Assembly: GCF_011745625.1 (NCBI RefSeq)
Contig: NW_027191484.1
Span: forward strand, 62,001 to 126,000
From: Cladosporium halotolerans
Taxonomy: Eukaryota
Length of the DNA: 64,000 nucleotides
Direction of reading: 5' to 3'
A program made the position numbers and the translations under genes. A model generated the notes under the pieces. That model saw only the letters and a program-made list of their open reading frames with translations, did no database searches and was not told the origin of the DNA. Shown piece by piece: positions 38,489-64,000 of the stretch (within the stretch, counting starts at the first letter, position 1; each line of letters opens with the position of its first letter).

Positions 38489-40363
38489 TCAAAAGTGCTC
38501 TTTGGCTTCCCAGAAGAGCTCACACTCCTCATCGACGCTACAATTGTCATCATCCGGTGAGGACTCATTCTCCTCCAAGCCGCACACCCGCAACGCTTGA
38601 ACATACTGTGCTTCCCTCCCTTCGCTTTGTGCTGAAGCGACTTGCCTCGGGGTGCATGCTCGTCCATGAAGAGATTCCGGCATGTGCGACATGAACGGCT
38701 TACTCAACACATCAGGGTCCGCGCCACGACCCAGTAGATCCCGCACTATAGCATCGTGACCGGCAGAGGCAGCTATATGGAGCAGCGTCCAGCCGCGTTC
38801 ATCTAGCATTGTAACAGAATGGTTCCCGAAGTACGGAAGCAAAGCTTTGTACGTTGCTTCATTCCCGTAGAACACAGCATGATGGAGCGCGTTCCAGCGT
38901 AGAGGTAAGGCCTCATGCTCGGGTCGCGCTCCCTGTCGTATCAGTTCCAGGAGCTCTGCAGCTGTTGCATAAGCCGCAACGCGGTGTAGGACTGTCCAGC
39001 CCTCGGTATCAACCACGTCCAGATCCTGCACGGCATCATCAGCAAGTAATTTGAGATAGTCCAGCATAGAAAATGTCCCAAATTGCAGCCGAGGCCAGCA
39101 GAAGAATGTAACATTCCAGCCGATAGTGTTTATGTGATCTTGCGAAGCCCCGCGGTCTAGCAACAGGCGCACTATATCGAGTTGCTTATGCCATATTGAC
39201 CACTGCAATGGTGTGGTTTGAAGAAGCCCAAATGTACCTTCCAAATCGGCGCCGCTATCGAGCAGCTCTTTTACGACGTCAGTACTGCCGTTTCGTATTG
39301 CAAACTACGCTGGCATTAGCATTTTTTTCTGACCGTCGGTGCGGTGGTCTTGACTGACAGCCAGTGGAGTCCAATTGCGCGCACCAATGTCCGTTCGCCG
39401 GCCTTCGTCATTTTTCAACATTCTTCGAACGGCGAGCAGATCGCCGCGATTACAAGCTACCAGAAACTCGTGATCGTTGTCGAGGACTCTCGCCAGAGCA
39501 AGCGAGCTTCCATGACGCAGGCTCAGATTCAATGGGCAGAGCGGGAATGTTCGTACCGAGACGGTCATGACGAGCATGAATCGGCCAAGGATCCGCGCAA
39601 GTGGAGTCGATATCTGCATTACAATGCAGTAATCCCGATACGGCCCTTGTGATGTCGGTATGAGGCTATAACGTACACCCCATGATGCCCAATCATCCTC
39701 CAGTGAAACGGGTTTGTATCGTAGAACCCGCTTCGTGGTCTTTGACACTTTGAGTGCTGGAACTGCAGATTCTGCTTCAGAGCCGCCGAATTGAGTGCGG
39801 AGTCCCGATGTCAATCCAGCGATCATGCTCTTAAGCTCATCTATACCACTCAAAGTCGAGCACTGGCCTCTACTAGGATACATGTCAGTAAATGGAGTCC
39901 AACGTCCAGAGGCAGTCAAAATGTCAATGCAAAAGCTCATTACATACAATGACAAGACCTGAAGCCAGTGCGACAGTCGTTCTTCCACGGCACTAAGCTT
40001 GACGATGATGCTTTCCATGTGCTGACTTTCAGATTTTGCCCACATGGTACGTTGACGAATGCTGCCGTACGCCTGAACGCGCGATAACACAGAGTCGAAT
40101 TGCTCGATACATTGGCGAGCGTCTCTCAGGAGATCTGCCAGAACGTTTTGACTTTGGACGTCAACTATTAGCGGATGTCCAGTGATGGAGGTGCAATGGA
40201 TAATGTCTAATTCGGCTTGGAGAGATACGATGAACGCTGCAAGGCGCTGCAGATCGTCAGGCGCATGTCTCCATCGGCTGTAGATGTTTTGTATCGATTT
40301 CAGAAGTACCGCGGTCGCTTGTATCAACGTGATGACACTCGCTGTGGCTCCTATGGGCTCCAT
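38489..40363 (-). CDS. HeLo-like/SesA-type fungal N-terminal domain + ankyrin-repeat protein, 3 exons
   Basis: N-terminus MEPIGATASVITLIQ..RWRHAPDDLQRL; ankyrin motifs WTPLA|FAIRNG, TPLQWS, GWTVLHRVA, WNALHHAV, GWTLLHIAASAGH; introns ~39873-39947 and 39305-39358. Confidence 0.8.
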
Positions 40364-40474
40364 TGCAAAATGTTAGTCGGTAGGGTATCAAGGAGAGTGC
40401 TACGAAACCATTTGTTTTCTAACTCTTCAAAGTCGCTCAGACGACTACTAGTGCAGCCTTGGATATGAGTTGTG

Positions 40475-40773
40475 GGTCGCATGTGCCGAGTAGGCTATAC
40501 CAATCATTGCTCGACACGTTGGCGTAGGTATTTGAGCTGTGCCTTGTCGCTAACCCATTATACTTGAATGGTGTGCCGGTCGCATACGCCGGATGAAGTA
40601 TACCAATCATTGCTCGACACGTTGGCGTAGGTATTTGAGCTGCGCCTTGTCGCTAACCCATTATACTTGAAGATGGTGTGCCGGTCGCATGCGCCGGATG
40701 AAGCTTACCAATCATTGCTCGACACGTTGGCGCAGGCTTTAAAGCTACGCCTTGTCGCTAACCCACTATACTT
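40475..40773. repeat. ~103-105-bp tandem repeat, about 3 copies
   Basis: Core taccaatcattgctcgacacgttggcg..gccttgtcgctaaccca.tatactt recurs; ggtcgcat starts at 40475, 40578 and 40683. Confidence 0.92.
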
Positions 40774-41636: not shown

Positions 41637-43480
41637 AAATCCCCCATTCTCACCGTCGTTCACGATATCAGGATCCCAGCGTGTTGCTACTGTAGTGTTG
41701 ATGGTCCCAACGACTCAAATCCTACCAAACACTTGCGTCCAACATCGCTGTGACAGGGAGTACGAACTTCACCTTGTGAGCGTTAGGAGAAGATGATATG
41801 CGAATTACAGGATAATAAGTAGCAGGTATCCAGTGTACGGAGCCTTAGGGTAATGTTTCCCCTGTTCATCTCACCGTGAATCATGAACAACGGATGATAG
41901 ACAACCGGGTTTGCCATGCTCCTAGAACGTGTGAACACACGATACGAACCATACCCCATCATCCCGTTACGCACCTGTAATGCATGGTTGATCAATCAGG
42001 ACGGGAACACGATAGAAAGAGATTTCTGGACCCATTTGCTTGTAGAATTTCCTAAATCTGCCCTTCTTCATTCCTCCATCTTGAAGATCGGGTTACCAAA
42101 CCTTGACCACGCTACGGGAAGCATCTCCAGAGATTGCATTCCTAGGCCGTTCCTTTTATGTTGAACGCAGCATCAGTCTCTACCTGTCGACATAGAATGA
42201 CAGACTATGATCCATAAACCAGGACACAGGAATTCGGCCATCAGAGTGCCACTTCCACGATTTGCGCGGGAGCCGCGATTCTAGAACGGGGAATTGAATC
42301 ATGCCGCGCTACCTTCCCCGTTGATGTGCCGCCGAGTAGAGGCCAGGCGCTTGGTCAGAAGTCGCAGGTGATTATGCAATCTTCGGGCTGCGAGAGTGCA
42401 GGCTTCCATGTCCCACAAGAGGGAAAATGATTGGGGGACGAGGTGGTCGCGCTAGCGGCTGACTGCAAAAGGCACAGCAGGGCTGTATTTGGAGACTCCG
42501 CATTGCACGGATAAGGGGGTATCTTGACAATGACGAGTTTGATACAAAGTATATCACGCGATGAAGACACGGCACGAAAACATGATGCTACGTTGATCTA
42601 AGTATAGCCGAAAGGTACAGGAAGTAGTTTGAGATCACTGAGACACGGCGGCACGGCATACGGCGTCGGTTTGGAGCTCTCCATGTAGCAAAAATAGGCC
42701 GAGTCGCATCATCCTGCCTTGCATTCTCTTGCACGGGACATCGCTCCGATCCTTGCCACAGCATGCTCATGTCAAAAAGTGCGTGTGCTGCATCCTGTCT
42801 TCCTGCGATCAAATCCTGGAACTAGAGGAAGCAGACGCGCGGGAAATCCGGAACAGGAACGCTCAGACACTAGTTCCGAGAAGCCGTCTCTGGCCATCAA
42901 AAGCCAGGTTTCCAAATGCGGGGATAGCTAAGCAGCGTGCCGCATATTGTGATTGCAGCGGCAGGCATACCACAGGCTCACAATTTCAGCGTGCCGCTTC
43001 TCATCAACTTCTGCTTCCCGTCTTGCTTTTTGTCTTCGATTACCAATGTGGGCCTTTTGGAGAGATTTTATGTACATAATTCGTTGAACAGCCAGGTTAG
43101 AACGCAGGAATGTTACCATCCGTGTCACCGATCTTCACACAGCATCACTGTCTTGAGATCTCAACATGACATTTGCCCAAGCCGAGGAGTCGTAGCTGCA
43201 GATCTGCTTGGGGAAGGAATTCCATATACTCTCGCACGCTCAGGCTCCTCATGATATCGCGGCACTTACGCGGGTGTGAAGCGGGGAGACGCGACAGCTC
43301 ACGTGTGGCTTGCAGCACAGTCTACCCCTGGGAGATAGCTCGCAAATGGTCCTTGTTCATTGCTTTTCCCACCACTCCAGCTGTTGAATCCCCGGATTTC
43401 TTTTTTGCTCAACTCCCTTGCTGTACCTTCAAACCCCGACAAGTGGATAGGTACACGGGACCTCTTTTAACTTCGAAAAC

Positions 43481-44038
43481 ATGGAAGTATCAGCGGACCG
43501 CCAGCGCGCGGTGCCAATGGAGGCGCATGTTGCCAGTACCAAGGGTGGGGTTGACAACCTCATCAACCTCAGTGGACTAACCGAATTTCCTCCCACAACA
43601 AATACAGCCAGCAAAGCCGGACCAGAAGTGGTAGAGCCATCCTGTCCGCCGAAGCCTCAACGCAGAAAATCCACGCCAATCTTGGCTGCTTGTTCCCAAT
43701 GCCAGAAGATGAAAATAAAGTGTTCGGGCGAGCGTCCTACTTGTTCATCGTGTTGCCTCCGTGTACTCCCATGTCGCTGGGGTGTCCGAGAAGGGTTGAC
43801 AAGACATGCGGACATGAAACAGACAATATCAGCTTCCACACAGCGCCAAATCGAGCTGGAGAGGTCTTTGGCAGAAACGAAAGGTCAGCTGAACGTTCTG
43901 ACACGATTTGTTCATACTCTTCGAAGTGGCTCTGATGCGGAGTCTGCGCTGGATCTTGCAAGACTGCGCCTCGGAACCGCAATCGAGGACATTGTCCGCT
44001 ATCAGGACTCCCGACTAAGCACCGCCCGCCCGATTTGA
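43481..44038 (+). CDS. Miniature Zn(II)2Cys6 protein (185 aa)
   Basis: ACSQCQKMKIKCSGERPTCSSCCLRVLPC, coiled coil, LRSGSDAESALDLARLRLG, then stop. Confidence 0.8.
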   Translation: MEVSADRQRAVPMEAHVASTKGGVDNLINLSGLTEFPPTTNTASKAGPEVVEPSCPPKPQRRKSTPILAACSQCQKMKIKCSGERPTCSSCCLRVLPCRWGVREGLTRHADMKQTISASTQRQIELERSLAETKGQLNVLTRFVHTLRSGSDAESALDLARLRLGTAIEDIVRYQDSRLSTARPI

Positions 44039-45795: not shown

Positions 45796-48095
45796 CGCCA
45801 CGCAAACAAATTTGATTTGATCTGAGTGAGGTCTGTGCCTGATACAGACAAAGCTTCTAGCGTGAATGTTTGAGAACTCGCAAAGATTGATGTGGGAGAG
45901 ATGCAGTGCAGACTGCTTGGTGATGTATCGCAGCGCGACTCCCTGGCAACTGAAGGATCAGATCGATCGGAGGAGGCGGCTTAGACCGTGTCCCGTCCTG
46001 CACATTGGCCGCCTGCATCCTGGTACCGCTTATGTACAGTAGTGAATGAACGTGTAAGAAATCAGGGCCTAGTTCCTGCATCGCCTAAGCTTCCCCGCAG
46101 GCATGCGATCAATGAGCAAACGGCAACTTCGTGAAGGAGCAATGCTGAGGTGTCGCAGCAACCTCATATCGGTTAGCCGAAGCCAACACGTCACACCTGG
46201 TTCAATGCTTCCCTGCAGCGAGACGTCGTTCCAGAGCTTCTCCGAGAAGCGCGTTACTGCGTCCACAGCTTGCATCTCGACTGCACTTGTATGCGATTGA
46301 TTCAGCCCTACATTGGCGCCCAGATTCAGGGTTTCCTCTTACGACGTGAGAGCTGACAGTCCAGACCCTTGACCTGCATGAACGCTGCAAGCCGTCCTCT
46401 GTGTCGTCTCCTGGAAGGGCCGCCTTTGATTGGCTAGTCACTATGGGACACTAGCGGAAGCAAGCAGCTGCCTATGAATCGCGGTTGCAAAACGCTTAGA
46501 CGGTACAATGCCATGCATCGCAAGGTCTTGGCAGGGGACCTTCTATGAGCTTCCATACGGTTTTGCTCCCCCTGCTGCGGAACGATGACCGCCCGCATCG
46601 GTATCAAAACCGCTGAGACGCGGTCTCGTTGCGGACGGACAGACGGCAAGCCCGCCTTGCGGCACGGAGCCGACCGATCGAATCAATGGTAGCAGAGGTC
46701 GCGACATCGGAGCTTCTCCGCGTCTGGCCCTCATCAGTGGACCCGAAGGCTGATCCTGCCGAAAAACCGGTCTTGCGCTTTTCTGCATGCCGCAACCTTC
46801 GTCATGGTCTCTAGCTGGATGCATTTGGATGCACGACATTCTTCTCGTCGTAGCGCATCTGGCGCATCTACTTTCAACTCTACTCAGACCGCGTGACGCC
46901 TTTCCGCAGGCTCGAAAGCAGACGCGTCGAACGATGACGGCGACGATTTGGACGAGGGGACGGCTGTCCGCGCGATCGGTGCCCCGACACATGGTCAGGC
47001 CGATAGGCAAATGACAGGAGAAGAGCAAGAGATGGAATATTAATCAGTTATGGCGTGGATAACAGATGCAGAGCGAAGATCAGAAAAAACGTCCCGGCAC
47101 AGGTGGACGGACATTACCTGTGCAGCTCTGGCTTGACCGTGAGCAGAACTCGGCCATCGCGGGTGTCTTCAATAGAAAGCGAGAGCGCTTCGAGGCAAGC
47201 GGCGGTGTGCGACTCGCGCAGCTTCGCCTTGCGAAATACGCGCATTCGGACCGCTTCCCCGGTGCTGCAGAGCTCCACCACCCTTTCCGGATAGAAGGCG
47301 CGAATGGCTGTGCAATCTACGCGCTCTCGTAGCGCCCGATTGCATAATCTCCAACCAATTGCATCTCGCATGAAGGTCTTTTGCTTGCCACCATCCACAT
47401 CTTACCGCGTGTTTGCCTTACACTCAACACCACTTCATTGTCCGAGTCCGAATATGTCTCAAGATGCCTAGGCGTGCATGTTCGCAGAGCGGAAATGTCC
47501 GAGCGTCAGGCAGCATGTGCCATACCTCGTGACCGCTTTAACCTCAGGCGGAATACGAAAGCGTTCTGCTGCGGGCAATCCGGCGTGTCGCAAATGGCTT
47601 CTGCCGAGCTTGACCTTCCATCCTGGACGACGGGTACAGTAACGGAATGACGTTCTTCGGCAGATTTGGCGCGCTAGCGGATTAAGCGAGGAGAGCTACA
47701 GCCGATCGTCATCGGGCGTCAGCGTTTTGCCACGCAAATATGTTCTCTCATGGGTTCATGAGTCCGCGGCGACATCCGCACACCTATTCCCTCGAAATGC
47801 CACATGTGCTTCTCTCCGTGCACTCGTCACGTGCTTGTCCAAGATAATATGTGAGTCCCCAAATTCCTGAAGTATAAGACCGACTCAACGGGCCCTGTGC
47901 GTGGCTGCCGGACAAGCGATGCGTCTTTGCCGCGATGGGGTGATACTGATGGCGCGAACAGCCTGCCTTCTACAAAATGTCTAAATGGCCGTGACAACTT
48001 CCATATATTCGGCCTGATCGATCATCTATGAAGAACTTTCAAATTTCTTAAGAGTACTCGATCGAACGACAGCCGCTACATCCACCGAACGCACG

Positions 48096-48602
48096 ATGAA
48101 CGAGAGCATGCCCGTCCATTTCTCCGCGGAAAGTCTCCGAAATGAGTGTTCTGGGACATCCCAGAGGGAAACTGGGTCTTCAAACGAGGCGAGTGAGAGC
48201 ACAAAGCGCATGCAACAGACAGCGAGGAGCAGCGACATTTCAGACATTGTACCGAAGCCTTGTGAGTTGGCTATCGCAATCACGGAGGATAAGAAAATGC
48301 GTAGTGAAGGCCGCTGTCTACATTGCAAAAAGAGGAGAGCGAGGTGCTCAGGGCAGCCTCCAGCCTGTCAGTCTTGTAGAGAGCGTGGGCTGACCTGCTC
48401 ATGGGACAATGGGCACGGTTTAACATGGCAGCAAGACCTGGTACGATCGCCACCAGACCAGCCACAGACAGACAATCTGTATACGCTTGTTTCTGCATTC
48501 CGAAGCAGGTCAGACGATGAGGCTACAATGTTGCTGGCTAGATTACGGCTGGGCGCTTCCGTCGGAAGTCTCGTGGAATCGATACGCACGGATTCCATCT
48601 AA
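48096..48602 (+). CDS. Miniature Zn(II)2Cys6 protein (168 aa)
   Basis: CLHCKKRRARCSGQPPACQSCRERGLTC..FRSRSDDEATMLLARLRLG..DSI*. Confidence 0.8.
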   Translation: MNESMPVHFSAESLRNECSGTSQRETGSSNEASESTKRMQQTARSSDISDIVPKPCELAIAITEDKKMRSEGRCLHCKKRRARCSGQPPACQSCRERGLTCSWDNGHGLTWQQDLVRSPPDQPQTDNLYTLVSAFRSRSDDEATMLLARLRLGASVGSLVESIRTDSI

Positions 48603-51583: not shown

Positions 51584-52378
51584 TTAAGTTTCCTGTAGAG
51601 CGTCCAGCAACAACACGACTATCTGCGAATAACGTGCCGCTGTTGCATCTTCGTGCTGCAACCGAGTCTTGCATCTTTCAAGCAATGCTGCAGCGTCGTT
51701 TCCTGTGTAGTGGCAACTTGTCGGTAAAGGTATACTCCCGACCAACGCGGCGGCTTGGACAGCATTCCCGTGCTTGCCACCGTTGATGTTTGCATCAGCG
51801 CCATGCTCGAGGAGATCTCGGACCATGGCCACCTGTCCCTCAACGCAAGCAATTTGTAAAGCGGTATGGTAGGGCCCTGCGACTTGATTCACATTGGCGC
51901 CGTGTTTGATAAGCGCAGAAAGAATACGACGGTCACCATAAGCCGCAGCTAGTTGTAGAGGTGTGCCGAAGGACGAAGACTCCGTGTCGGCCGCCGCACC
52001 GCATTGCAAGAGGCGCTCGACAATGGCCTCGTTGCCACCAAGGATGGCAGCTTGCAAAGGAGTTTCGAACGGACCTCCGACGCAATTAACGTTGGCACCT
52101 CGCGTGATGAGCATATCCACCATGGTCGGACGGCCCTCCTCAGAAGCGGCCAGAAGTGCAAAGCTTAGGCACTCGACATCTCGTTGATCATATCTTTCAT
52201 GATACAACATGTGTTGGAACCCGTCATCCTCGACTTGGGCAACCGAGGAGGCTAGAGCGCATTGTTCCTCATGTGCGTGCTGGCAAGCGATGGCATTGGT
52301 GGTGCTTCGATTCAATCGAGGGCGGCGTGCAAAGTTCGTACTCCCCATACGGTCGTTTGGCGTCGGAGATCGGTTCAT
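51584..52378 (-). CDS. Ankyrin-repeat protein (start uncertain; possibly an NLR fragment)
   Basis: ALLAASEEG..GANVN, TPLQAAILGG, TPLQLAAAYG..GANVN, TALQIACVEG..GADAN, NAVQAAA. Confidence 0.7.
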   Translation of the reverse strand: MNRSPTPNDRMGSTNFARRPRLNRSTTNAIACQHAHEEQCALASSVAQVEDDGFQHMLYHERYDQRDVECLSFALLAASEEGRPTMVDMLITRGANVNCVGGPFETPLQAAILGGNEAIVERLLQCGAAADTESSSFGTPLQLAAAYGDRRILSALIKHGANVNQVAGPYHTALQIACVEGQVAMVRDLLEHGADANINGGKHGNAVQAAALVGSIPLPTSCHYTGNDAAALLERCKTRLQHEDATAARYSQIVVLLLDALQET

Positions 52379-54555
52379 GTGAAGAGAGATGGTGACACAG
52401 CTTGCAGCGCGGATGACCCAGCCAGTCGAGCTAGTGTGGGCTTCAGGTCGTGGATTCGGAGTGCACCAACTCGTGCAAGGTGCGAGCTTCAAGAGCCTGT
52501 GACGCCAGACCCGCCCGAGCAGCCTCCCGCAGATGCCAAGCGCCTCGTTGTGTGGGATCGACGCGTCTAGAATGGCCACGATTCGAGAATGGAGGGCGGG
52601 GTGAGTGTAGTGCCAACTTTTTGAAAGCAGGAGCCCTGCGATACAAGACCTGATGCAAAGTCGCAAGGAACTCAGAATCCATGTTTCAAGAAGCAGGAAT
52701 AAGCCGCCGGTTCCAGGAAAGCTGGCACGTTGGGCACAAGGGACTGTCCAATTGCATGAGGAGTACGTCGTCCAAATCCCCTATTCTCATCGTCGTCGAC
52801 AGTATCAGGATCCCAGCGTGTTGCGACTGTGGTGTGAAAGCTCCCAAAGACTCAAGTCCTGGCTACCGCTTGCAGGAAAGGTGACGCTATTCTTTCGTTA
52901 TTGCATTCGTGAATATGAAATTCAAGTATCAGGATAGAAGATGGAATGTGAAGACCAGGATAGCACTTAGAGGAGATTTTCCTATATGGGGAGCGTAGGT
53001 TGGCAACTGCCTGATTTAACTAATCGTGAATCCTTGCATCACGGCCAATCAAAAATCGGGACTACCTCACTCCTGGCATCTGTATATCAACGATACGGAA
53101 TCTCTCCTGATAAACCATCACATATGCTCAGTGCATGTTTAGTTACCAGGATGCGAGTGCGAATAAAATGTATCTCAGGACTTATGGTGTTGTAAAAATA
53201 GGATGCAAGCTTCCCAAGTCTGCCATTCCTTACGCCTAGGTCCTCGTTTTTCGGTTCGCAACCCTTGTTTAAGCTTGATATGCAGGTAGAGCACCTTGTC
53301 AGAAGTTGCAGTCCTGGTTATACGGTCATAGTCTCGATGTGTCAACATGGATTAACAGACCAAATTCCGCTATTCGGGATGTAGGAATTTGGCCGGGCGA
53401 GCGCCGCTTGTATGGTTTCTCCGGGAGGCCGCAATTCTGGAATTTACGGACGGGATGGATTCCGCGCTACCTTCCCTACCAGCTTTCTGCCGAGTAGACG
53501 TCCCCATGGCTTCTCAGAACCGCTGATGAGAAGCCTACGCGCTCTCGAAGCGCCAGAGCACACGACATTACCCTGTTCGTGATCTCTGAGACTTCCGGCA
53601 TGTTGAACGCACTGTCTCGGACGTGTAGCAGAACCAATGATGGGGCTACAGGTTCAACGAAGACATTCATTGGCCACCCTCTAACTTGCCCTCTCTTCTG
53701 GTCCTGCTGTCGCAGACCCCGCATTGAGGGGCTCGAGCTTCTTCTAGATTGCCTCGGTGAGCGGTGTTGGCTAGGTTCAATAAAGTCTTTAGTCACGACA
53801 TTTCGTAGATCTCTTCCTACTATGTCCGCCGCAGAGTGGTTGATGGAAAGTCACGATCAGCCCCGATTCGGGTGATCACTGACACCACATGACCATCCAC
53901 CAGGCGACCAACATTATGATGAAGCTGGCTTACTACTGTACGCCCAAGCTGTAATTAGTTTGTAGGTCCTCAGCCTGGTTGAATGTCGGTCTCGCGGTCC
54001 AAATCTGGCCCTTTGCTCAGGAAATTCTTTCCAACTCAGTCTCTTAAATGCTCTTCATCACCCGCCCCAACGACGGATGGGCAAAGTCTATAATGAAGCG
54101 TCCAGCTCAGCTCTCAGCTTCGATTACTTGATTGAACAATTTCATCACAGCACATGATCTTAAATTAACACCAGTCGTCGTAGATCATAACAGCGCAGCC
54201 AGCAGATCTTTCCACTGATCTGCTAACGTGACTCCGGTTTTCTCGAGAATTTAGATGCCCGATCATTCACAAGCCGACGCACGCAGCAGTCAGTCGAGGA
54301 TTCGCAACCGAAGAATCCTCGACTTAAAGCTCGTTAGAGCGCTCGAGAACCATGGTATGTCATGTTTGGCGTAAATTTCTGCTTTGACACATGACCAGCT
54401 GCAATAATCCGCCGAAGAACATAGCCTCCCAGGTCTTGGGCTTGAATCAGTTCTTATAGGAACCGGCAGTCACGCAAACTAATGGTCACAAGCAATCGAG
54501 AGTCACAAAATCTCACCACAGGCCTACCCCGAAATTGGGCACCGCAAAAGGAGAG

Positions 54556-55234
54556 ATGCCCGCTCGAAGCCAATTGACCTCACCTGCAGGTAATCTCACG
54601 TGATGGAATAACGAAAACACGTACTAAAAATACAGCAGCAATGCCGATGTACGAAATGGAAGATCTTGCGGACTCGTTTGCTCTTCTTTGGCCAGCAGAA
54701 GATCCAGGAAACTCGAGGACAGTCATGAGAGACACGGCTATGACTGCTATTGATAGCTTCTATGCCTTTGATATGACAAGAAGGACGAGGACTATAGGGA
54801 TTATGCTTGTCGAATCGACCGGCCAAATGCATGCAGCTGTGAGCGGGTGGCTGACCCAGATGTACAACGTCGCCACTTTCCCTCAGGTACCCCAAGCGGA
54901 CGCCTTGGGTAACGTCGTTCGATTGGCTGATCTCATTGGGCACCAACTTGAAGCCTCCTACCGTGACCGAGGAGAAACTGGCCGTTATAACGCCTGCCAC
55001 TGCGAGAAACAGCTCGTTGCTAAACATTTCTTTGGCGAGCCTCTCGGCAAAATAATAGATATTGTGATCAGTAGAGAGCCCTGCGGAGATTGTTGGAACT
55101 TCATGGCACGGCTGGAGCTCGTTCTTGGGCTACATGTCAACATCTACGTCAATGGCGAGCTTTCATTCCATGGAAGGGACGATGCTCTCTTGCGTGAGTG
55201 GCTGGCAATCTTTGGGGAAGTGCTGCAAGTGTAA
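54556..55234 (+). CDS. Standalone zinc-dependent nucleic-acid deaminase-fold protein (SsdA/DYW-like), ~210 aa
   Basis: AVSGW..GRYNACHCEKQL..IVISREPCGDCWNF (HxE..PCxxC); in-frame upstream micro-exon 54556-54589 with intron 54590-54635 (GTAATC..ACTAA..CAG). Confidence 0.72.
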
Positions 55235-55507: not shown

Positions 55508-56697
55508 CTAAGTATCATCAATGCTCCAGAAGGGGTGCTCCAAAATCTGGTCAATGGTGAATCTAGCCTTGGGATCTAGATTCGTCATACCTGAGAACAT
55601 GTGTAATGCTTCAGGTCCAAGTTCTGCACCCCATTGCTCGAACCTGAGTCCAGGCTCTTCCTTGACCGCCTCATCAGCTATGTCAGAAGCTCCCCGCAGT
55701 GCAGAAGACCAGTCTTCGTCGTTTACATGTATAAAGAGTGCATCCGGCACCGGTCCAAAGTATGAGAAATGTCGAGTCAATATTTCTTGTTCCGGCGTGA
55801 TACCGCGGTCCTTCAGCTTTTGATAGCCGTCCAGGAGTAGGAAGTCGCCTCCTCCCATAGCGTATATTCCCTTATGGCGGGCGTTAGCAAGTTCCTAGTC
55901 TTCGCTTCGAGGTAACGTACCACGAGACCGAAGGAGTAGATGTCCGAAGCTTTAGTCACTGCTCTTCCTGTCTGCCCTTCTGGACTTCGCCACATAGCAT
56001 TGCCTATCGCATATGGGGTATAGCATGAAGCTCCATTTTTTGATTTGAACACAAGATCGAAGTCGCCGAGAGCTACATCGCTGACTACTTTTTCCCCTTC
56101 TGCATCGTAGGCCCAGTTGGCCAGAACGTTGTCAGGTTTCACATCTGCAGGGTGAACAGATCAGCTTGATGAAACGCGAGACTATTTAGGGCCGAGGAAG
56201 TACCGATGTGAATCCAATCCCTACCGTGCAGCTCTTGAATTGCTTCCCCTACGTGTCGTAATATTTTCTTTCGTTCTTTTATAGACAATTCAGGGCCATC
56301 TTGGATCAGAGCGAGGAGGGTGCTCCTAAAGTAGGGGAACACTAGGACACCTTCCTCTTGGTTGCAATCAGTGTGCAATCGAAGCCGACGAGAGTCCTGA
56401 AACTCTGATGCAAACCGCATAGACAGATCATAGAACTGCCTAGGCACGCGCTTAAGGACAAAATAGTCATTGCCGGATCTTCACAACTTGTATCAGTCGC
56501 CATAAAGGGCACATAAACGACCCAACATACTGGGCTTTGAAGATACTGAGCGCGTGATCCTCGCGATGTCGCTGCAGCACTTGGCCGCGCGCGTAAACGC
56601 GACCCGAGTCGCCCACTAAAGTGGATGACATCCTGACTGCTGTAAAGTGGGGTTGTGGAATAGAGAGGTGACGACGAACGATATTGTTGAATCGCAT
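55508..56697 (-). CDS. Fungal Ser/Thr protein kinase, 4 exons (start at 56697 or at the downstream MSST)
   Basis: FVLKRV, WIHI|DVKPDN, LGDFDL, GNAMWRSPE, SDIYSFGLV, MTNLDPKARFTIDQILEHPFW across intron-separated ORFs. Confidence 0.85.
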
Positions 56698-57320
56698 GAA
56701 TGAATATTCGGCAATGTGAGTCTGTTGATGTATGTAGTTTCCCGATTGTAAGGCTGGCTCTCGCTGAATTCATTCAGCAGTCTTTCAGAAAGCCCCACGC
56801 CAAGAAAAGCGCGTGTTGCGCCTGAACTGCAGTCACTCCGCGGGATCTTCTAAGCCAATCATTTAGTCTTGGCATATCTGAATACTCGGCGTATCGCGGG
56901 AGCCGCAGCTGACATGGCTGTGAGGCCGACAAATAGTTAGTTTGACCCATTTACCAACGGCCAAGCGCGCATCTACCGTTTGAAACACGATTCTCCGAAG
57001 TCACACAATGGATGATGCGCTTTTGGCGAATCTGCATTGACGTGTCACCAAATCAGCCTCGATTCGCTCCTTGCAGTGACGAAAAACATGAGTTCTTTGC
57101 GCATGAGATCAAGTATTGGCCGGCGGGATGTTCTGTAAGCGCTAAGATAAAGTGGTTAAGGACGACTGGACTGGCAAGTGTTCCGTAAGGGGATTCGGTG
57201 AGCCATCACTAAGCGCCCACAGCTCTGGTTCGATAACTAGAGACGAGTTATAAGGCTACATGGCAGCAATCATTTCACCAACAACTTCACTCTCAATTTG
57301 TATTACAGCCATTTGCAAAG

Positions 57321-57683
57321 ATGCCGAATAAAGTGATTAGCAGTTCTACCATCAAGACAATCTCAAACGGAGGCCGGCAGATCACTCTTCAATATGCTAC
57401 GAAGACCGACACTTGGAACCGCTATAACCTCGCAGTAGACGTGCAACAGAAGTTCGCCAAAGCCATGGAGAAAGCGGAAGTTCCGGCAGGCGCGACGACA
57501 GCTATTATGGCGTGAGTCAACCTTGCCTCCTTTAGCCTTTGGCAGTGCGCACATATTATTGACTTTCTTCGTGCCAGTGAAACCGAACATCCCAGTCAGA
57601 AGGATTCTTACCCTCATTACACTACTGTCTACCAAGATGAAGATGGGCAACATATCACCACGAAGCATGTCTATCCCAAGTAG
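57321..57683 (+). CDS. Small hypothetical protein (98 aa) with His-rich C-terminal motif, 2 exons
   Basis: TATAAG ~70 nt upstream; intron 57512-57577 (GTGAGT..TTGAC..CAG) restores frame to ETEHPSQKDSYPHYTTVYQDEDGQHITTKHVYPK*. Confidence 0.7.
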
Positions 57684-58448
57684 TCTGAGATTTCGGGAGT
57701 TTGGAGGACCAAGAAGCGCCTGAGGAGAATCTGAGATTTCAAAAGCATGAAGGGAGTGTATCTAGCGCATCCGCCTGTCGCTAATTTTACGATGGGCTTG
57801 AGCTGTGCTTCCGACTTGCGCAAAAGGATCCGAAGACTTTGTCCAATAGCTATTAGCCAGTTATTCAACGCTTAGCGCCAAACTTGTCGCGGAGCGAGCC
57901 GGCATGCAATCGCCACCAGTGGCCCTTTGACAGGACCCTGTAGATAACAGATCGATTGGTGGAAAAAGTGAAGCGCCATGTGCTTTGGCTGGCTGCTGGA
58001 GTCCAGCGAAGCGCCGCGGCCGCAGCACGCCATGTTTATTGCATCCGCTGAACCCCATCCTTTCACAAGCTCTACATTGGCTCACGGGCTATGACTGGTA
58101 TCAGCTCAGGGTTCGTGACCAACTTAGCCAGGCTTAAGCGCCGAAGTGTGATACGTAAAGTGCTAGAAATACCTATTAATGTGTTTCCGGCTCATTAGCG
58201 GCATTCAGATGGCTTCCCAATGTCTTTCCACGCCTATTATTGGACACAGCTGGCTTATCTAGCGCTGGGTCCCGATCCTGCTAAGTTGTCCTCGAAATCA
58301 TCACAAAGTACACAAGCCCATGCTCCTCGTCTGATGCTTTTGCATAGCATCCTCAGTACTTAGAGGCCAAAGATCTGCCAGTGTTTAGCGCTTGGCAAGT
58401 GCAATTTGACGAGTCTTCGTCTGGCCTTCAAACCGATCTTCACCAAGG

Positions 58449-60421
58449 ATGGATCCAGCGAGTGCAGCCGGTCTGGCATCTTTGGCCTTTGATGGATTTG
58501 ATCGTTCAGTCAAAGGTCAGCAACTCGTGAAGTAATTCAGAGCAACTAAATTGACGGATCTATAGTTCTCAAGTTCTTCTCGTCGATGGTTGACGTGCCG
58601 AAAGATTGCGAACGATGCAAGGTGCAACTCATGATCGAATACAACCGTTTACTGGCCTGGGGAGATGCGGTCGGGCTTATTGATGTGCCAGAAGGATCGC
58701 ACGTCGCATATTGCCTGGGGACGAACGCTATCGAACTCTGCAACATTGTTTCCCGCATAGCTCGGCTTCTGGAAGAATTCAAAGAATTGAACAATCGCTG
58801 GAAAAGTGACTTGAACTCGCGCCAAATGGACAACATGTCACTGCGTGAGGAACATGCGAAGAAGATGGATTTGACCAAACAGGTTTCGAGCTTAGCAGCG
58901 GCTTATGAAGAAAATGAGCAGAAAAGGAAGCATGTGAGGGCCGTTCAGCGCCTGAGTGAGTGGATATCTAGGAAGGCTGATTGCACTAAAGACATCATCA
59001 CCAACCCTTTGCGTGTTCGTTGGGTCATGATTGACAGGGAAGCTTTCGAAGCCTTGTTAGAGGATCTCCACAACTTGACAGAGCGGATACACGAGTTGAT
59101 GGATGATTACCGTGTGAAAACAATCCACGAGACGACCGCCAAGTCTTTTCGAGAGATGGTTATTATGCGGAACGATCTCAAAGAACTCAAAAGCATGCTC
59201 GAAGCGGTGGCAAGCCTTATGAAAGTTTCGAGCACCGACCCCCACGGTGAATTCACTTCCAACGCTGATAACCATGAGACACTCCGGGACCTCCTGCGAT
59301 TGAAGGAGCTCAAGTGTGCATCTAAGGAGATGCTGCTCCATGCCATGACCAGCGCTCGCATAGATATCGACGAATACCTGAAAGGCGTTCTTGCCGTACC
59401 CCGGTACCTGGGGATGCGCCAATTCGAACAACAATTCACCCTTATTGCGGTCGCCGGTGTAAGCAATTCGGTACCAAATCGTCCGAGGGGTGTATTCTCC
59501 AGGGAAGGCATCGATTTTCAGGTCTGGATTGAATGGAGAAAAGCGGAAAAAATGTCTGCTGGATCAGTCGAAGACAATCAATCGGTATTGCGAACGGCAA
59601 CACTTGCACAAATGCTTTCCATCTCTAGACCAAGGCATCTCTATACACCGACTTGTATTGGATATGTCGACAATCGAGAATCACCAGACCGGTTCGGATG
59701 GATCTTTCAGATGCCTCATGGATCCCACAGTGAGACTACGCTGAAAACTCTCCACAATATGCTGGGCCAAAACAGCCACAAACCTACGCTTTCCCAGAGG
59801 ATCGCCATAGCCTGGAAACTCGCTTCGTCCTTGTCATACTTACATACGACTGATTGGATACATAAAGGCGTCCACAGTGGAAATGTTTTATTTCCCTGTG
59901 ACAATAAATCGATAGATACACAGCAACCGGTTCTTTCAGGATTTGAGTATTCAAGGCCCCAAGGCGGCGAAACGACATCTCGCAGCCCCGATCCGAGGTG
60001 GGACATCTACCGGTGGCCAACGGTGCAGAAGGAGGCGCCGAAAGCAGGAAGATCGCGGAAGACTTACGATATTTACAGCTTCGGGCTACTGCTCCTTGAG
60101 ATAGCCCATTGGCAGCCATTGCATAGCCTGTTGTGTTTGAAGAGGTGGCCAGCACCGTCCGCTCAAGACTGTAGGGTTCGGGGTTGGCTCTTGAACGAAG
60201 AGCCATTGCCTCCTTTCAGAGGTGAAAATCCCCTTACCGATCTGCTACATATCGCCGGCGACAAGTACTGGAAGGCTACCAGACGTTGTCTCGTGGCACA
60301 TGGCGAATCAGGCATGGCTGTTGACGAGGACTCAAATCAGTCGGAAGCTTCCAATAGTATACGGCTTCAAGACGCCTTTACCGAGCTTGTTGTCGGTGAG
60401 CTGAAGGGTGTCTCGATCTGA
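58449..60421 (+). CDS. HeLo (prion-inhibition/propagation) domain + pseudokinase protein, 2 exons
   Basis: Exon 1 MDPASAAGLASLAFDGFDRSVK, intron 58516-58565; HeLo hallmarks QLMIEYNRLLAWG and RVRWVMIDREAFEALLEDL; kinase-like half with VWIEWR, WIHKGVHSGN, LSGFEYSR, DIYSFGLLLLEIAHW. Confidence 0.88.
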
Positions 60422-60622
60422 ATTAAATCCAAACATAACCCTGGAAATGTCTCGTGTGAAGTTGGAGATCCAATAGTATGCGAAAAGTATTAATCGCAAG
60501 GCCATTCTAAACTAGATTATGGCATCAGGTTGCAGTTGCCCTCCAAATCGTGGTTTCACTGACAATCAGTCACATATTCGAGTACCGTTTGCCTCAATTT
60601 CTTGCAGTCTCCAGCAACTGAA

Positions 60623-62071
60623 TTAACTGTTATCTTGCTGGCTGGCAGTGCTTCTACTCTCCAACAAACTTTGCAGGTTGCTATATTGCTTCCTCACCAC
60701 GAAGTGAAGCGCTGTCCATCCGTCGAGATCTTCTGTGAGAGCATTGGCTCCACTGTCTAACAAAATTCGAACAACAGTCTCGTAGCCGTGCCCCGCCGCT
60801 CCATGTAATGCTGTTTGGTCGTTCTCGTCTTTGGCGTTGACGTCAGCGGTTTTTTCAAGAAGCTGCTTGACGACATCGTAATGCCCATTGCGCGACGCAC
60901 AGTGGAGTGCGGTTTGCCCTGCTGCGTTCCGGGTGTCAACTGGAGCCCCAGCGTCGAGGAGAGCCTGCACAATAGAACCTTTACCGCGCGCTGCAGCGAA
61001 GTGAATTGCTCCAAGACTTCGTGCTTCTGCTCCCTCTCTCAGGAGGAATTTCACGTCGTCCTCTGAACCCGTTCTGCAGGCGTCATTCAACTTCTCGTTC
61101 TTGGTGCGCGGTATATCCTTCGCGCAGCTGCAGAACAGAGAATGATCTTGCATTGGTAGGGACGACCACGATTGTTCCACATCCTCTGCGCAAGGGCGTG
61201 AGCATCTGTCAAAATCCAGCATTTTACGGCAGGTGACGAGTAGATCATGCTGCCAGCCTTTAGGATGGAGACTCTCTTCTATCCAACAATGAACCTCTCT
61301 GATCTGCTTTGCGTAAGATGAAGTGGAGTTAGGCGAGGGCTTGAGAACATTACTCAAGTCCTTCGACTGGCCCGGGAAGAAGCATGCAACGAACATCTCA
61401 AGGAACACTGCCCCTAGGGACAAAATATCCGCAGAACGACCACGGGTCGCTCCTTGATCGACTTCTGGGGCGCAATACTCTCGAGTCCTAGAGGAATTGC
61501 GAGACTGATAGGTAGTTGGCATTGTTTTCCCGAGACCCATTTGCGAAATGCCAAAATCAGCTAAGAGAATCTTTTCGCCCTTGATCAGTACATTCGACGG
61601 TTTGATATCTCGATGTCGGATGCCCAGAGAATGAATGTAGCGTAGAACACCTATCAGACAACCGAACCACTGTAATGACGGTGCCAATCCAGGCCGGAGA
61701 TAGAAGTGAAGATTAGCCTCTGCGCGGTCCATGACTATGGCAAACTTGTGTTGATCTTGATCCACCATATCAAAGTACGAGTGTATCAATCGAATGACAT
61801 GGTAATGCCGAGCTGAGTGGAGGACTTTGACTTCCTTCTCGATTATTCGTCTCTGATGAAGTTCGGAGATCGGTTCTGTCTCATTATCGAGCATGAGGGT
61901 CTTCCGGACGCACTTGAGACCCTCAAAGCCCCCAGAAACTCCTTTCACTTTCTCAACACCAGTGGCTATCAGTGATGAGTTGCCGTCAGGTGCGAAAGGT
62001 ATTTGGTCATCATCCTGGTAGGTAAATAGCTCGTAGGGTTCAACCTCGGGCCACATGCACGTCGTTTCCAT
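60623..62071 (-). CDS. Ser/Thr protein kinase + C-terminal ankyrin repeats (a further 5' exon 62131-62198 is possible)
   Basis: CVRK, EKEVKVL, IRHRDIKPSN, LADFG, YCAPE, ADILSLG; 4-5 ankyrin repeats (GQTALHCASRNGH, QTALHGAAGHGY, GWTALH). Confidence 0.9.
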   Translation of the reverse strand: METTCMWPEVEPYELFTYQDDDQIPFAPDGNSSLIATGVEKVKGVSGGFEGLKCVRKTLMLDNETEPISELHQRRIIEKEVKVLHSARHYHVIRLIHSYFDMVDQDQHKFAIVMDRAEANLHFYLRPGLAPSLQWFGCLIGVLRYIHSLGIRHRDIKPSNVLIKGEKILLADFGISQMGLGKTMPTTYQSRNSSRTREYCAPEVDQGATRGRSADILSLGAVFLEMFVACFFPGQSKDLSNVLKPSPNSTSSYAKQIREVHCWIEESLHPKGWQHDLLVTCRKMLDFDRCSRPCAEDVEQSWSSLPMQDHSLFCSCAKDIPRTKNEKLNDACRTGSEDDVKFLLREGAEARSLGAIHFAAARGKGSIVQALLDAGAPVDTRNAAGQTALHCASRNGHYDVVKQLLEKTADVNAKDENDQTALHGAAGHGYETVVRILLDSGANALTEDLDGWTALHFVVRKQYSNLQSLLESRSTASQQDNS

Positions 62072-63283
62072 GCTATGGGAGCGTGAGCCAGTCAAATGGC
62101 TCCCGAGTGCTCAGTACAGAACTTGGATACGAATTGAATGGGCCACCGATCACGCCCTGCTGTTTGGAAATGGATGTCAGGGTTGATAAGTTGACCATGG
62201 AGCGGCAAAATCAGCTTGCGGGGGAGTCCGGCGAGGACCAATCACATCCGGCCCAGGCATCCGCGCCATGACTGAATCGCCGGGCATTCCGGATTCGGCA
62301 GCCTGGCAAACACAAACGCCTTCACATCCGCACCAAGTGGACACCCCAATCAGTATTTCGACACCTTCTGGCTTCAGAACCGTCAGTTTCTTCGAGGCCC
62401 GGCCTTGCTAGCCAACCAAGCCGCAGACTTCGAGTGTCGGTCAGGTACCAGGGTAACGTGCACACGACGGACGAAGCCCGTACGAAGAGCGCACGCCTTC
62501 ATGTAGTGTCCGGTGTGAACAGCAGTGGCCCATGCAGTGTAACCGAGTGCGATACAGAATAGCAGGAAATATGATGAGCCACACCGTAGGCCGTTCAAAA
62601 TTTCCGTTCGACGTTGTGTTTATCCATGGATGACACCCAACATTTGGCGCACACCTCGCCGTCCAGTCTTCCGCAACCTTGTCACGTGGAACGATTCAGC
62701 TTGCGCATATTGTCAGCACGCGATGTGCTCCCACCGCCAACGCAACCGCCAACGCCGACCCAACATTGAAGATACAGAACACGAGCAGGAGAAAATAAAT
62801 GCGAGACATAAAGGAACGCGAGAAGATTCCATCGTTCGCACGGGAGATTAGACACAGGCTCAGTAGGTAGGACAAAGCAACACCGAGAAACAACCATCAC
62901 GAGCACCTTCTGGGCTTGTAAAGCCGGGAGCAGCACAAGTAGCACGGCAGTCATTACCCGTCTGCACACAAGTTTGCTAGCCAACGTCAACTTTAGACGG
63001 AAAGAGGTGGACAAGAAGGAGCACAGTTCAAGACGATGTAACACCCCGGGGAAGCAAGGATAATGGCCGCTCTTGAGAGACAGCCTGTGCTGACCTGGGG
63101 ATAACTGGTTTAACGAAATGATCGTGCTGCGTTTTCGCCTGCGGAAACACAGTCAACAACGGCAGCCAGTCCACGTGGGGGCTCAGGATCGCATATTACA
63201 GGATTAGAAAAGTAGGTGAATTTATAGAAGGTGCAAGGATTGTTTTGTGTGAAAATTCTATGCACGATCGGTGTACTCTACTT

Positions 63284-64000
63284 TCAGGATGTGAGCGTGA
63301 AGCCTTTGCCGTACTGGGTCGTAAATTCCGTCTTTGGCCCGTGATTCCGCTGCTCTCCACGAGTGGCGGAAGTGTCACCCTGCTGAGGTGGGATATTCTG
63401 TCCTTGCGTATCGGTAGCTAGGCCGGAAAGGCTTCGAGCTATCTCCTTCAGAGCCTCGTCGCCAACATGCCCTCCGACTTGTCTTGTTCTCCAGCCTAGA
63501 CCTCGGTTTGTACCGTGAATGGTTTTGCCATTTGTGGACACCATGAACTGCACGGCATCACCGATGGCGTAGTTGTCAATGGTGCTCACATTGTCCCTCA
63601 GATGCTCGCTTGCCCGATCACAAATGTCGATACTTTGTCGAGTTGCCTCCCATTCATCTCGTAGCCTTGCAAGGTCCGCACGATCTTCATCCGAAGCAAT
63701 GACTGTCTTGGATCTGTCTATCAAGCTGGCAAAGAGCTTTTCCTCGTATCCCTGAAGTCTTCTGGCTGTATTAGCAAGAGACTCTCTACAGTTTTGCAAA
63801 CCTCCTCTCATGATTTGATCCGGTATGGGGTCAGTGATTGCTGAATCCGTGGACGCAGATGTACGTCTGCTTGTGAGTTCGATCTGCGCAATGTGATCAG
63901 ATAGATCGGCACAGATCTGCAGACACTTTTCAGTGCTCAGCCGCTCCTGCTTTATCATCTCAACTTCTTGTGATTCTCTCTCAGATATCACCACATTCTT
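63284..64000 (-). CDS. 3' part of a helical/coiled-coil protein resembling fungal HeLo-like-N family members, with a beta-repeat C-terminal motif (5' end outside window)
   Basis: Frame open to the window edge; ERLSTEKCLQICADLS.HI, L.DEWEATRQSIDIC, NYAIGDAVQFMVST.GKTIHG.NRGLGWRTRQVGGH, YGKGFTL. Confidence 0.65.
   Translation of the reverse strand, partial: KNVVISERESQEVEMIKQERLSTEKCLQICADLSDHIAQIELTSRRTSASTDSAITDPIPDQIMRGGLQNCRESLANTARRLQGYEEKLFASLIDRSKTVIASDEDRADLARLRDEWEATRQSIDICDRASEHLRDNVSTIDNYAIGDAVQFMVSTNGKTIHGTNRGLGWRTRQVGGHVGDEALKEIARSLSGLATDTQGQNIPPQQGDTSATRGEQRNHGPKTEFTTQYGKGFTLTS

Follow-up and report, generated by a model that had tools for sequence, protein, structure and literature searches.

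Can a fungal cell-death executioner be armed by a protein kinase, as MLKL is in vertebrates? The question is raised by 64,000 nucleotides of Cladosporium halotolerans DNA (NCBI RefSeq assembly GCF_011745625.1, contig NW_027191484.1, positions 62,001 to 126,000 of the forward strand), referred to here as the window and numbered from its first letter. Towards its right-hand end a gene (A), which joins a HeLo domain to a kinase fold whose catalytic motifs are replaced, lies tail-to-tail with a gene (B), which joins a kinase with intact catalytic motifs to ankyrin repeats, and the two recur as neighbours in three classes of ascomycetes. Together A and B make up a conserved two-gene module. The best explanation of the whole, which we put forward tentatively, is that A is an executioner of the MLKL type, that B is its dedicated activating kinase and that the pair is a cell-death module.

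It is almost certain that A is a HeLo-pseudokinase. Its features are as follows, with conservation counted in an alignment of 68 family sequences.

58449-60421, + strand: gene A, HeLo domain, brace and pseudokinase, 640 residues, one 50-nt intron
58449..58515, + strand: exon 1, with the ATG at 58449, coding for the N-terminal 22 residues plus one base (start of the HeLo domain)
58516..58565, + strand: intron of 50 nt, GT..AG, phase 1
58566..60421, + strand: exon 2, including the stop codon at 60419-60421
58449..59191 (range includes the intron), + strand: HeLo domain, Pfam PF14479, all-helical in the AlphaFold2 model
59393..60418, + strand: pseudokinase domain, residues 276-617 of the exon-2 open reading frame (ORF), from AlphaFold2, VIA-align and a profile search
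59522..59533, + strand: VWIE replacing VAIK, the beta3 Lys becoming Glu (W and E each in 67/68 sequences)
59861..59869, + strand: HKG replacing HRD (H 68/68, K 68/68, G 62/68)
59939..59947, + strand: GFE replacing DFG (G 68/68, F 68/68, E 53/68, with D in 15/68)
59969..59986, + strand: ETTSRS, candidate phospho-acceptor, Thr-Thr-Ser/Thr in the activation-loop equivalent (T 63/68, T 60/68; Thr492 and Thr493 in full-length numbering)

The HeLo domain is recognised by Pfam with E 5.6e-32 and 111.6 bits, against a cut-off of 23.2, over profile positions 20-203 of 205, and the missing start of the match is provided by exon 1. The other Pfam matches are DUF7580 (PF24476, E 5.5e-10), which is the Pfam model for the C-terminal part of A, and PK_Tyr_Ser-Thr (E 3.1e-8). 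Splicing of the intron is suggested by conservation, because an uninterrupted ORF in a relative, from the metagenome locus L001, reproduces both the peptide of exon 1 and its junction with exon 2; the intron is unspliced in the sole RNA-library contig that spans it (X19, 58473-58676, low depth). The low-depth, unspliced X19 contigs over A are possibly DNA. An AlphaFold2 model built on the 68-sequence alignment (mean predicted local distance difference test score, pLDDT, 75.8; predicted template modelling score, pTM, 0.80) predicts a helical protein up to about residue 275, forming a HeLo bundle and two long brace-like helices, followed by a kinase fold at residues 276-617; modelled residues are numbered on the exon-2 ORF, and 23 is to be added for full-length numbering. 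Residues 3-261 are helical in the model, with pLDDT below 50 at 85-105 and 122-155.

The loss of the catalytic motifs is a family trait under selection and not decay, because the changes are conserved across the 68 sequences. The glycine loop of A reads RPRGVF, and Arg342, in the predicted alphaC helix, hardly varies in the same alignment, which suggests that it may pair with the beta3 Glu as a charge-swapped counterpart of the usual Lys-Glu pair. The activation-loop equivalent is predicted to be flexible (pLDDT below 50 at residues 463-472), and the ETTSRS stretch within it may be phosphorylated. Human MLKL has HGK and GFE at the corresponding motifs and is phosphorylated at T357 and S358. 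By structure, VIA-align places the MET kinase beside the A model with a Z score of 20.7 and a root-mean-square deviation of 3.5 over 271 aligned residues (residues 265-617 of A covered), and EGFR, HER2, MerTK and BRAF are similar to A to the same degree (Z about 20). By sequence, a profile of the A family finds, among kinases, only members of the tyrosine kinase-like (TKL) group (LIMK1, RAF1, mouse MLKL, KSR1, BRAF, IRAK4 and CTR1, among the best 60 of 73 matches to solved structures). Mouse MLKL stands fifth among distinct sequences in that search (E 2.9e-4, 22.5 bits), below LIMK1 (the best, at 24.4 bits) and RAF1, and HET-S is not among the best 60 of 73. MLKL is also absent from the six solved-structure matches of the single A sequence, and neither MLKL nor HET-S is among the 50 matches listed by Foldseek and VIA-align for the A model; the kinase domain fills these lists, and the HeLo domain was folded only together with it, so that this absence is uninformative. 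In sum, A is a pseudokinase that is well conserved and laid out much as MLKL is, with a loop that is plausibly regulatory.

The features of B, and of the spacer that separates it from A, are these.

60422..60622: spacer of 201 bp between the convergent genes A and B, tail-to-tail
60623..62071, - strand: gene B, kinase and ankyrin repeats, 482 residues, no intron needed, stop codon at 60623-60625
61157..61966, - strand: kinase domain, Pfam Pkinase E 4e-26
61607-61615, - strand: HRD
61550-61558, - strand: DFG
60662..61081, - strand: about 4-5 ankyrin repeats, Ank_2 E 5.2e-28

Homologues of B are 473-483 residues long and share a common N-terminus. Among 46 sequences of the family HRD, K157, N160, D172, F173, APE and E80 (the alphaC Glu) are invariant, and K57 (the beta3 Lys, in CVRK) and G174 are nearly so, suggesting that B is probably, though not certainly given its glycine-rich loop, competent in catalysis. 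The closest solved kinases to B, among the best 60 of 1172 matches, are JNK1/3, BRSK2, MKK5, PLK3 and CDK2 (E about 1e-15 to 1e-12), together with TSSK6 and GSK3. The ankyrin and kinase parts are conserved to the same degree (mean pairwise identity 0.57 vs 0.58), and the idea of a hypervariable ankyrin sensor was rejected on this ground for the clade. Contigs of the metatranscriptome run X16 cover 60509-62109, which is B only of a 4-kb stretch, and the B contig extends into the spacer as far as 60509; this is consistent with a transcript of B, though such libraries can carry DNA, and the absence of coverage over A is uninformative. In one gene model, P0142 on a 6-kb contig, about 140 residues that include the end of a PigL_N-type domain run into a B-like kinase (72% identical), through either a true fusion or a merger of two adjacent genes by the gene caller.

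An original prediction, made by reading the letters of the window, had described most of this correctly. The fusion of a HeLo domain to a kinase fold, the HKG and GFE replacements, the lack of VAIK and the ETTSRS just after GFE all stand at the exact positions given, and the motif changes extend across the family; the N-terminus, expected to model as a HeLo bundle, is all-helical with moderate confidence in parts, and the MLKL-like architecture of bundle, brace and dead TKL-type kinase fold is borne out. The same is true of a neighbour about 200 bp away, tail-to-tail, with intact K/E/HRD/DFG/APE and ankyrin repeats. The label 'RIPK-like' that it attached to B does not survive as a statement of kinship and can describe a role only, because no RIPK is among the best 60 of 1172 solved-structure matches and B has no RHIM (RIP homotypic interaction motif): the Pfam scan gave no RHIM family at E <= 0.01, and no G-(I,V)-Q-(I,V)-G pentapeptide, the core of that motif (PMC7885112), is present on reading.

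The finding that carries the argument is that the two genes stay together. Relatives were taken from 104 matches of the A search and from the best 120 of 2597 matches of the B search, and consecutive locus tags or accessions place A and B side by side in 10 named species from three ascomycete classes.

Penicillium chrysogenum: A N7497_000945, B 000946
P. rubens: A Pc06g02130, B 02120
P. arizonense: A OGE46766, B 46765
Talaromyces islandicus: A PISL3812_09757, B 09758
Recurvomyces mirabilis, assembly 1: A LTR86_011078, B 011079
Recurvomyces mirabilis, assembly 2: A LTR78_010585, B 010584
Fusarium sarcochroum: A FSARC_11379, B 11380
F. mexicanum: A FMEXI_11331, B 11332
F. phyllophilum: A FPHYL_6893, B 6892
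F. bulbicola: A FBULB1_6209, B 6208
Cylindrodendrum hubeiense: A g4174, B g4173

The genes also share one contig in Ilyonectria robusta, Dactylonectria macrodidyma and P. nalgiovense. Among the first 50 A matches, 26 pair with a B match on a longest contig of equal size, often of 4.6-9 kb only, and 31 A/B pairs were matched in total. Since this adjacency recurs in many species, it is far beyond chance. In a scan at the DNA level, which covered 75 metagenome loci holding relatives of A, locus L001 (A 53%, B 51% identical) again has the genes tail-to-tail with a gap of about 267 nt, at locus L011 A is truncated and next to it lies, downstream, a remnant of the C-terminus of B (its last repeats), and L018 has an N-terminal fragment of A only. 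Pairwise divergences of A and of B are strongly correlated (Mantel r = 0.911 for 32 pairs, a value reached in 0 of 5000 permutations), and the nearest neighbour is identical in the two matrices for 22 of the 32, a pattern that at the level of sequence indicates a shared history. It is likely that A and B are functionally coupled.

A search of the full-text literature, which had subscription journals and supplements outside its reach, brought up no report of a kinase gene conserved beside HeLo-pseudokinases, in keeping with the original prediction, which knew of no description of the paired arrangement. There is likewise no such mention in the available portions of PMC12881547, PMC10197012, 10.1101/2022.03.16.484565, PMC12258605 and PMC7885112, and neither 'DUF7580' nor six locus tags of the A/B pair occur in the full text searched. 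Among the database names seen for relatives of A there are only 'hypothetical', 'prion-inhibition and propagation domain-containing' and 'protein kinase domain-containing'. The pairing may, of course, be in print elsewhere.

The mechanism that would best accommodate these observations is as follows. At rest, the HeLo membrane-targeting bundle of A would be restrained, by way of the brace helices, by the C-terminal pseudokinase, which would neither bind ATP in the usual manner nor catalyse. The ankyrin repeats of B would dock a conserved partner or sense a trigger, and B, once triggered, would act as a Ser/Thr kinase on the conserved Thr-Thr-Ser/Thr in the flexible activation loop of A. The phosphorylated pseudokinase would then free the HeLo domain to insert into the membrane, leading to cell death in defence or allorecognition. 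The particular step in which B activates A by phosphorylation is one that we would advance with somewhat greater reserve than the scheme as a whole. Direct contact between the two may be envisaged, and a prediction of the complex between the pseudokinase domain of A (residues 270-617) and the kinase domain of B (residues 1-320) gave a median score of 0.42, against 0.33 for a single unrelated-protein control, from which no verdict follows.

Several observations weigh against an MLKL-type executioner with a dedicated kinase. MLKL is not the closest kinase to A by fold (VIA-align) or by sequence (single sequence and profile), and the likeness to it may be convergent. The glycine-rich loop of B is degenerate (ATGVEK on reading), the kinases nearest to B include no RIPK, as set out above, and ankyrin repeats conserved as evenly as these are unlike a fast-evolving sensor of non-self. 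The pairing, too, has gaps. Matching genes by contigs of equal size is indirect, and 24 of the first 50 A matches have no matched B; 7 of these 24 are on contigs shorter than 4.4 kb, and one, a Fusarium cluster (P0025), holds members that adjoin B by locus tags. Misses of this kind are weak evidence, the B matches being the best 120 of 2597. At the DNA level B is lacking from L002 and L003 (A 46%; 4.6 and 3.0 kb available downstream) and from L023 (A 52%; 4.2 kb downstream), and no kinase is found in the flanks of 11 groups at 39-42% identity to A. Finally, correlated divergence is expected of any tightly linked genes and does not by itself prove an interaction.

One alternative is that A and B are unlinked in function and are neighbours only through membership of one accessory or mobile block, passed on or transferred as a whole. 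The lower G+C content of their surroundings (0.49-0.52 vs 0.54-0.64), the accessory-type genes that begin at about 36 kb, the occurrence of at least five copies of A on small contigs of P. arizonense and the hint of transfer given by a Zarea-Talaromyces sister pair (discussed below) would all suit such an origin. Across three classes, however, the other neighbours drop out and B alone accompanies A, the tail-to-tail layout and the spacing recur, unrelated subfamilies of HeLo-pseudokinases have independently gained other kinase neighbours, and the key residues of both A and B are kept under selection, so that mere linkage seems improbable. An explanation that keeps the coupling and reverses its logic is that B restrains A, through inhibitory phosphorylation or stoichiometric ankyrin binding in the manner of an antidote, or that B is a guarded kinase or decoy, a target of pathogens or viruses, whose loss or modification is sensed by the pseudokinase domain of A, which would then fire. 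Co-inheritance and correlated divergence fit a restrainer equally well, the conserved ankyrin repeats are as would be expected of a fixed partner interface, both genes decay together at L011, and kinase domains have been discussed as guarded or decoy elements of fungal NLRs (NOD-like receptors; PMC12258605). We nevertheless consider control of this sign unlikely: by analogy with MLKL, in which it is established, restraint would be provided in cis by the pseudokinase, and relatives of A without B exist, a state in which an unguarded lethal executioner would be intolerable unless autoinhibited. The Thr-Thr in the flexible loop points to a regulatory phospho-site, the sign of which it does not give.

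Either sign of control could be combined with a role for A and B as an allorecognition (heterokaryon incompatibility) locus, at which death would follow when A and B of different haplotypes meet after hyphal fusion, in the manner of other het systems of two genes. Other fungal pairs of executioner and activator serve allorecognition (PMC12881547; PMC10197012), and the distribution of the genes among species is patchy. Moreover, the sequencing run X11 (58303-62279) represents a second haplotype or a close species in which divergence is uneven, with 46 of 1045 letters differing (4.4%) in the HeLo-coding 5' half of A, against 6 of 502 and 34 of 2455 in the remainder of A and the whole of B. Against this, X11 is perhaps another species rather than an allele, and the HeLo, pseudokinase, kinase and ankyrin parts are about equally conserved (0.55-0.59) with no hypervariable region, leaving an incompatibility locus a rather improbable description of the pair. 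A further proposal would deny that A kills at all and see in it a membrane-associated scaffold pseudokinase that serves ordinary signalling together with B. The database names seen for relatives of A are the three given above, and plant MLKLs are reported to act in immunity with a separable cell-death activity (10.1101/681015); on the other hand, the HeLo domains studied so far, those of HET-S and HELLP, are membrane-disrupting death domains (PMC12881547), and the patchy, accessory-type distribution is unlike that of a core signalling pathway. A mere scaffold seems improbable, and a putative killer armed by B is the reading preferred here.

The comparison with vertebrates is one of layout and order. 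MLKL and A both have a helical bundle of the HeLo/four-helix-bundle superfamily, brace helices and a TKL-type pseudokinase in the same sequence, both are without the catalytic Asp and the Asp of DFG, and both read GFE and carry Ser/Thr in the activation loop; as in RIPK3-MLKL, a separate active kinase is a candidate activator for A. Unlike A and B, the genes for MLKL and RIPK3 are not neighbours. B differs from RIPK in that it is not closest to TKL kinases, lacks a RHIM and has ankyrin repeats, and A differs from MLKL in the change of beta3 Lys to Glu and in that MET, EGFR, RAF and LIMK are at least as close to it as MLKL is. For A and B, phosphorylation and killing are predictions. Plant MLKLs (Arabidopsis MLKL1-3 and wheat Pm13), likened to A here by description only, also have a HeLo-type N-terminus and a pseudokinase and act in immunity, and no dedicated neighbouring kinase is described for them in the available portions of the sources (10.1101/681015; PMC10951266).

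Among fungi, the HET-S/NWD2, HELLP/PNT1 and gasdermin-protease pairs resemble A and B in being two-gene clusters that set an executioner beside its activator, and HET-S and HELLP share the HeLo domain with A. The activator of such a cluster carries superstructure-forming repeats, such as ankyrin, TPR or WD40, attached to a portion that signals or acts as an enzyme (PMC12881547). The triggers differ: HET-S/NWD2 and HELLP/PNT1 rely on amyloid templating from an NLR and the gasdermin pairs on proteolysis, whereas A and B have no amyloid motif or nucleotide-binding domain and, unlike any of these systems, have a pseudokinase as the regulatory part of the executioner and a kinase as its neighbour. 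A belongs to the known fungal HeLo/HELL-kinase fusions with DUF7580, for which no statement of a partner kinase was found. These fusions have been called 'reminiscent of MLKL', with a call for study of the extent to which necroptosis is conserved in fungi, and no upstream kinase is named for them in the available portions of that source (PMC12881547). The logic of an executioner beside its activator is known in fungi, and in A and B it would take the form of a pseudokinase and a kinase. Conservation of a partner kinase next to the executioner in Penicillium and Talaromyces, in Fusarium with its relatives and in the Dothideomycetes offers a concrete pair on which the necroptosis question can be asked. 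If the proposal is true, phosphorylation joins amyloid templating and proteolysis as a fungal way to arm a pore-former, with a bearing on the origin of the RIPK3-MLKL step; if the pseudokinase of A is truly akin to that of MLKL, both being TKL, a kinase-to-MLKL step would either predate animals or have arisen twice. If it is untrue, the strict co-inheritance of A and B needs another explanation.

A kinase neighbour is not confined to the immediate family of A. Of 55 non-redundant loci with A-like genes, which together offer 441 kb of flank, 16 contain a kinase gene, and two of these 16 are the B-type cases L001 and L011; at a density that we take to be about one kinase per 300 kb, chance would presumably yield about 1-2 such loci. 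Distant HeLo-pseudokinases (24-45% identity to A) often adjoin kinase genes of other kinds, including a kinase followed by ankyrin repeats (L033:5218-9188, - strand), a 984-residue protein of TPR_10/TPR_12 repeats and a kinase (L069:3855-6806, + strand) and head-to-head kinases 1.3-2.6 kb from the A-like gene (L012, L033, L041/42, L045, L055/60 and L073). The association of kinases with HeLo-pseudokinases is thus recurrent and dependent on the subfamily. It would be a long step from here to the view that HeLo-pseudokinases of filamentous ascomycetes in general are wired to a repeat-bearing kinase encoded next door (kinase-ankyrin, TPR-kinase or others), which would make them a third class of cell-death cluster, phosphorylation-triggered and necroptosis-like with the kinase in the role of RIPK3, and we regard so broad a generalisation as doubtful; were it true, the class would stand beside the NLR-amyloid-HeLo and protease-gasdermin clusters. 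The kinases at L069 and L033 are fused to repeat types that are used by fungal NLRs.

Beyond B lies a further gene, C, the 5' end of which is outside the window.

63284..64000, - strand: gene C, C-terminal 238 residues of a PigL_N family protein
63467..63589, - strand: two-part N/G/Q-rich motif of C, with 12 invariant residues in 25 sequences

The last 27 positions of the PF17111 profile (PigL_N, formerly HeLo-like_N) are matched within the window (E 2.9e-7, 30.5 bits against a cut-off of 27.2), and all 90 of 90 full-length relatives, of about 430 residues, carry PF17111. The family extends over Eurotiomycetes, Leotiomycetes, Dothideomycetes and Sordariomycetes at 40-53% identity. The motif follows the pattern N-x3-G-x3-Q and N-x3-G-x4-Q and ends about 60 residues before the C-terminus. 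In alignment A2 it reads ..IDNYATGDAVQFMVST.GK.IHG.NRGLGWR.RQVGGH.. and is among the most conserved parts of the family in four ascomycete classes. AlphaFold2 predicts four short beta-strands for it (pLDDT about 60-70). No amyloid family of Pfam matches the 71-residue region at E <= 10, no named motif equal to it was found, and it contains no G-phi-Q-phi-G core, reading ..GDAVQFM.. and ..RTRQVGG..; this core is the defining trait of the PP and RHIM motifs (PMC7885112). There is no NLR between B and C, and what lies upstream of C falls outside the window.

The original prediction had given C an amyloid-like double repeat and had placed it with A and B in a three-gene circuit carried as mobile cargo. 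A conserved two-part motif does exist, and no known amyloid motif matches it, so that 'amyloid-like' describes at most a resemblance. The circuit itself shrinks to two genes. The co-location and co-evolution expected of homologues hold for A and B and not for C, which has no homologue at any of the 75 loci with relatives of A; its family is widespread, and in pair-bearing species its relatives are far from A and B by locus tag (T. islandicus 08309 vs 09757/58) or are on separate contigs (Thozetella), which rules it out as a third member. The PigL_N part of P0142, the B-like gene model mentioned above, is no orthologue of C. Upstream of A there are a second kinase gene (55813-56480, - strand), in two ORF pieces with a probable intron, an H-x-D..KPDN loop and DFD instead of DFG, and, 3.2 kb from A, an ORF of 218 residues (54578-55231, + strand) that matches the C-terminal domain of SsdA, a bacterial single-stranded DNA deaminase toxin (PF24120, E 6.8e-16). 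Neither these two nor the ORF at 57237-57515 qualifies as a conserved neighbour of A, with 0 matches in the 75 loci. Among the window neighbours examined, only B travels with A.

As to mobility, the cargo idea finds no captain-type recombinase (DUF3435) in the ORFs scanned from this window (59 of 144 of at least 125 residues, the longest per place, and 5 further ORFs) and no inverted repeats of at least 40 nt in 36000-64000; a Starship or other mobile element might reach past the window's edges. In the first 36 kb the genes are housekeeping ones (ORC4, tRNA-guanine transglycosylase, a glycosyltransferase and others), at the higher G+C content given above, and from about 36 kb, where it falls, the genes are of accessory type (ankyrin-only, Zn-cluster, deaminase-toxin-like, kinases), so that a position near 36000 may be the boundary of an accessory region. 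Ankyrin-only genes occur there at 38492-40372 and 51587-52780, as do ORFs of the Zn-cluster type at 43451-44035 and 48018-48599. At 40465-40773 a unit of about 103 nt is present in three tandem copies (86-100% alike), and the 100 nt of 41637-41736 recur at 52774-52873 (81%), beside the two ankyrin genes.

The distribution of A itself, patchy among species and with multiple copies in P. arizonense, is compatible with mobility. In a quick maximum-likelihood tree of 30 A sequences the window A groups with Dothideomycetes (support of 100 in the Shimodaira-Hasegawa-like approximate likelihood ratio test, SH-aLRT), and most sequences fall together by class; the deep branches are very short, and there is one well-supported cross-class pair. 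This pair unites the A protein of Zarea fungicola (Sordariomycetes) with that of Talaromyces islandicus (Eurotiomycetes) as sisters (SH-aLRT 99), making a cross-class transfer possible, for which we claim no donor or direction. In Penicillium arizonense the copies of A, at least five of them, are near-identical or related and lie on small contigs (P0319, P0323, P0324, P0091 and others), which suggests recent multiplication.

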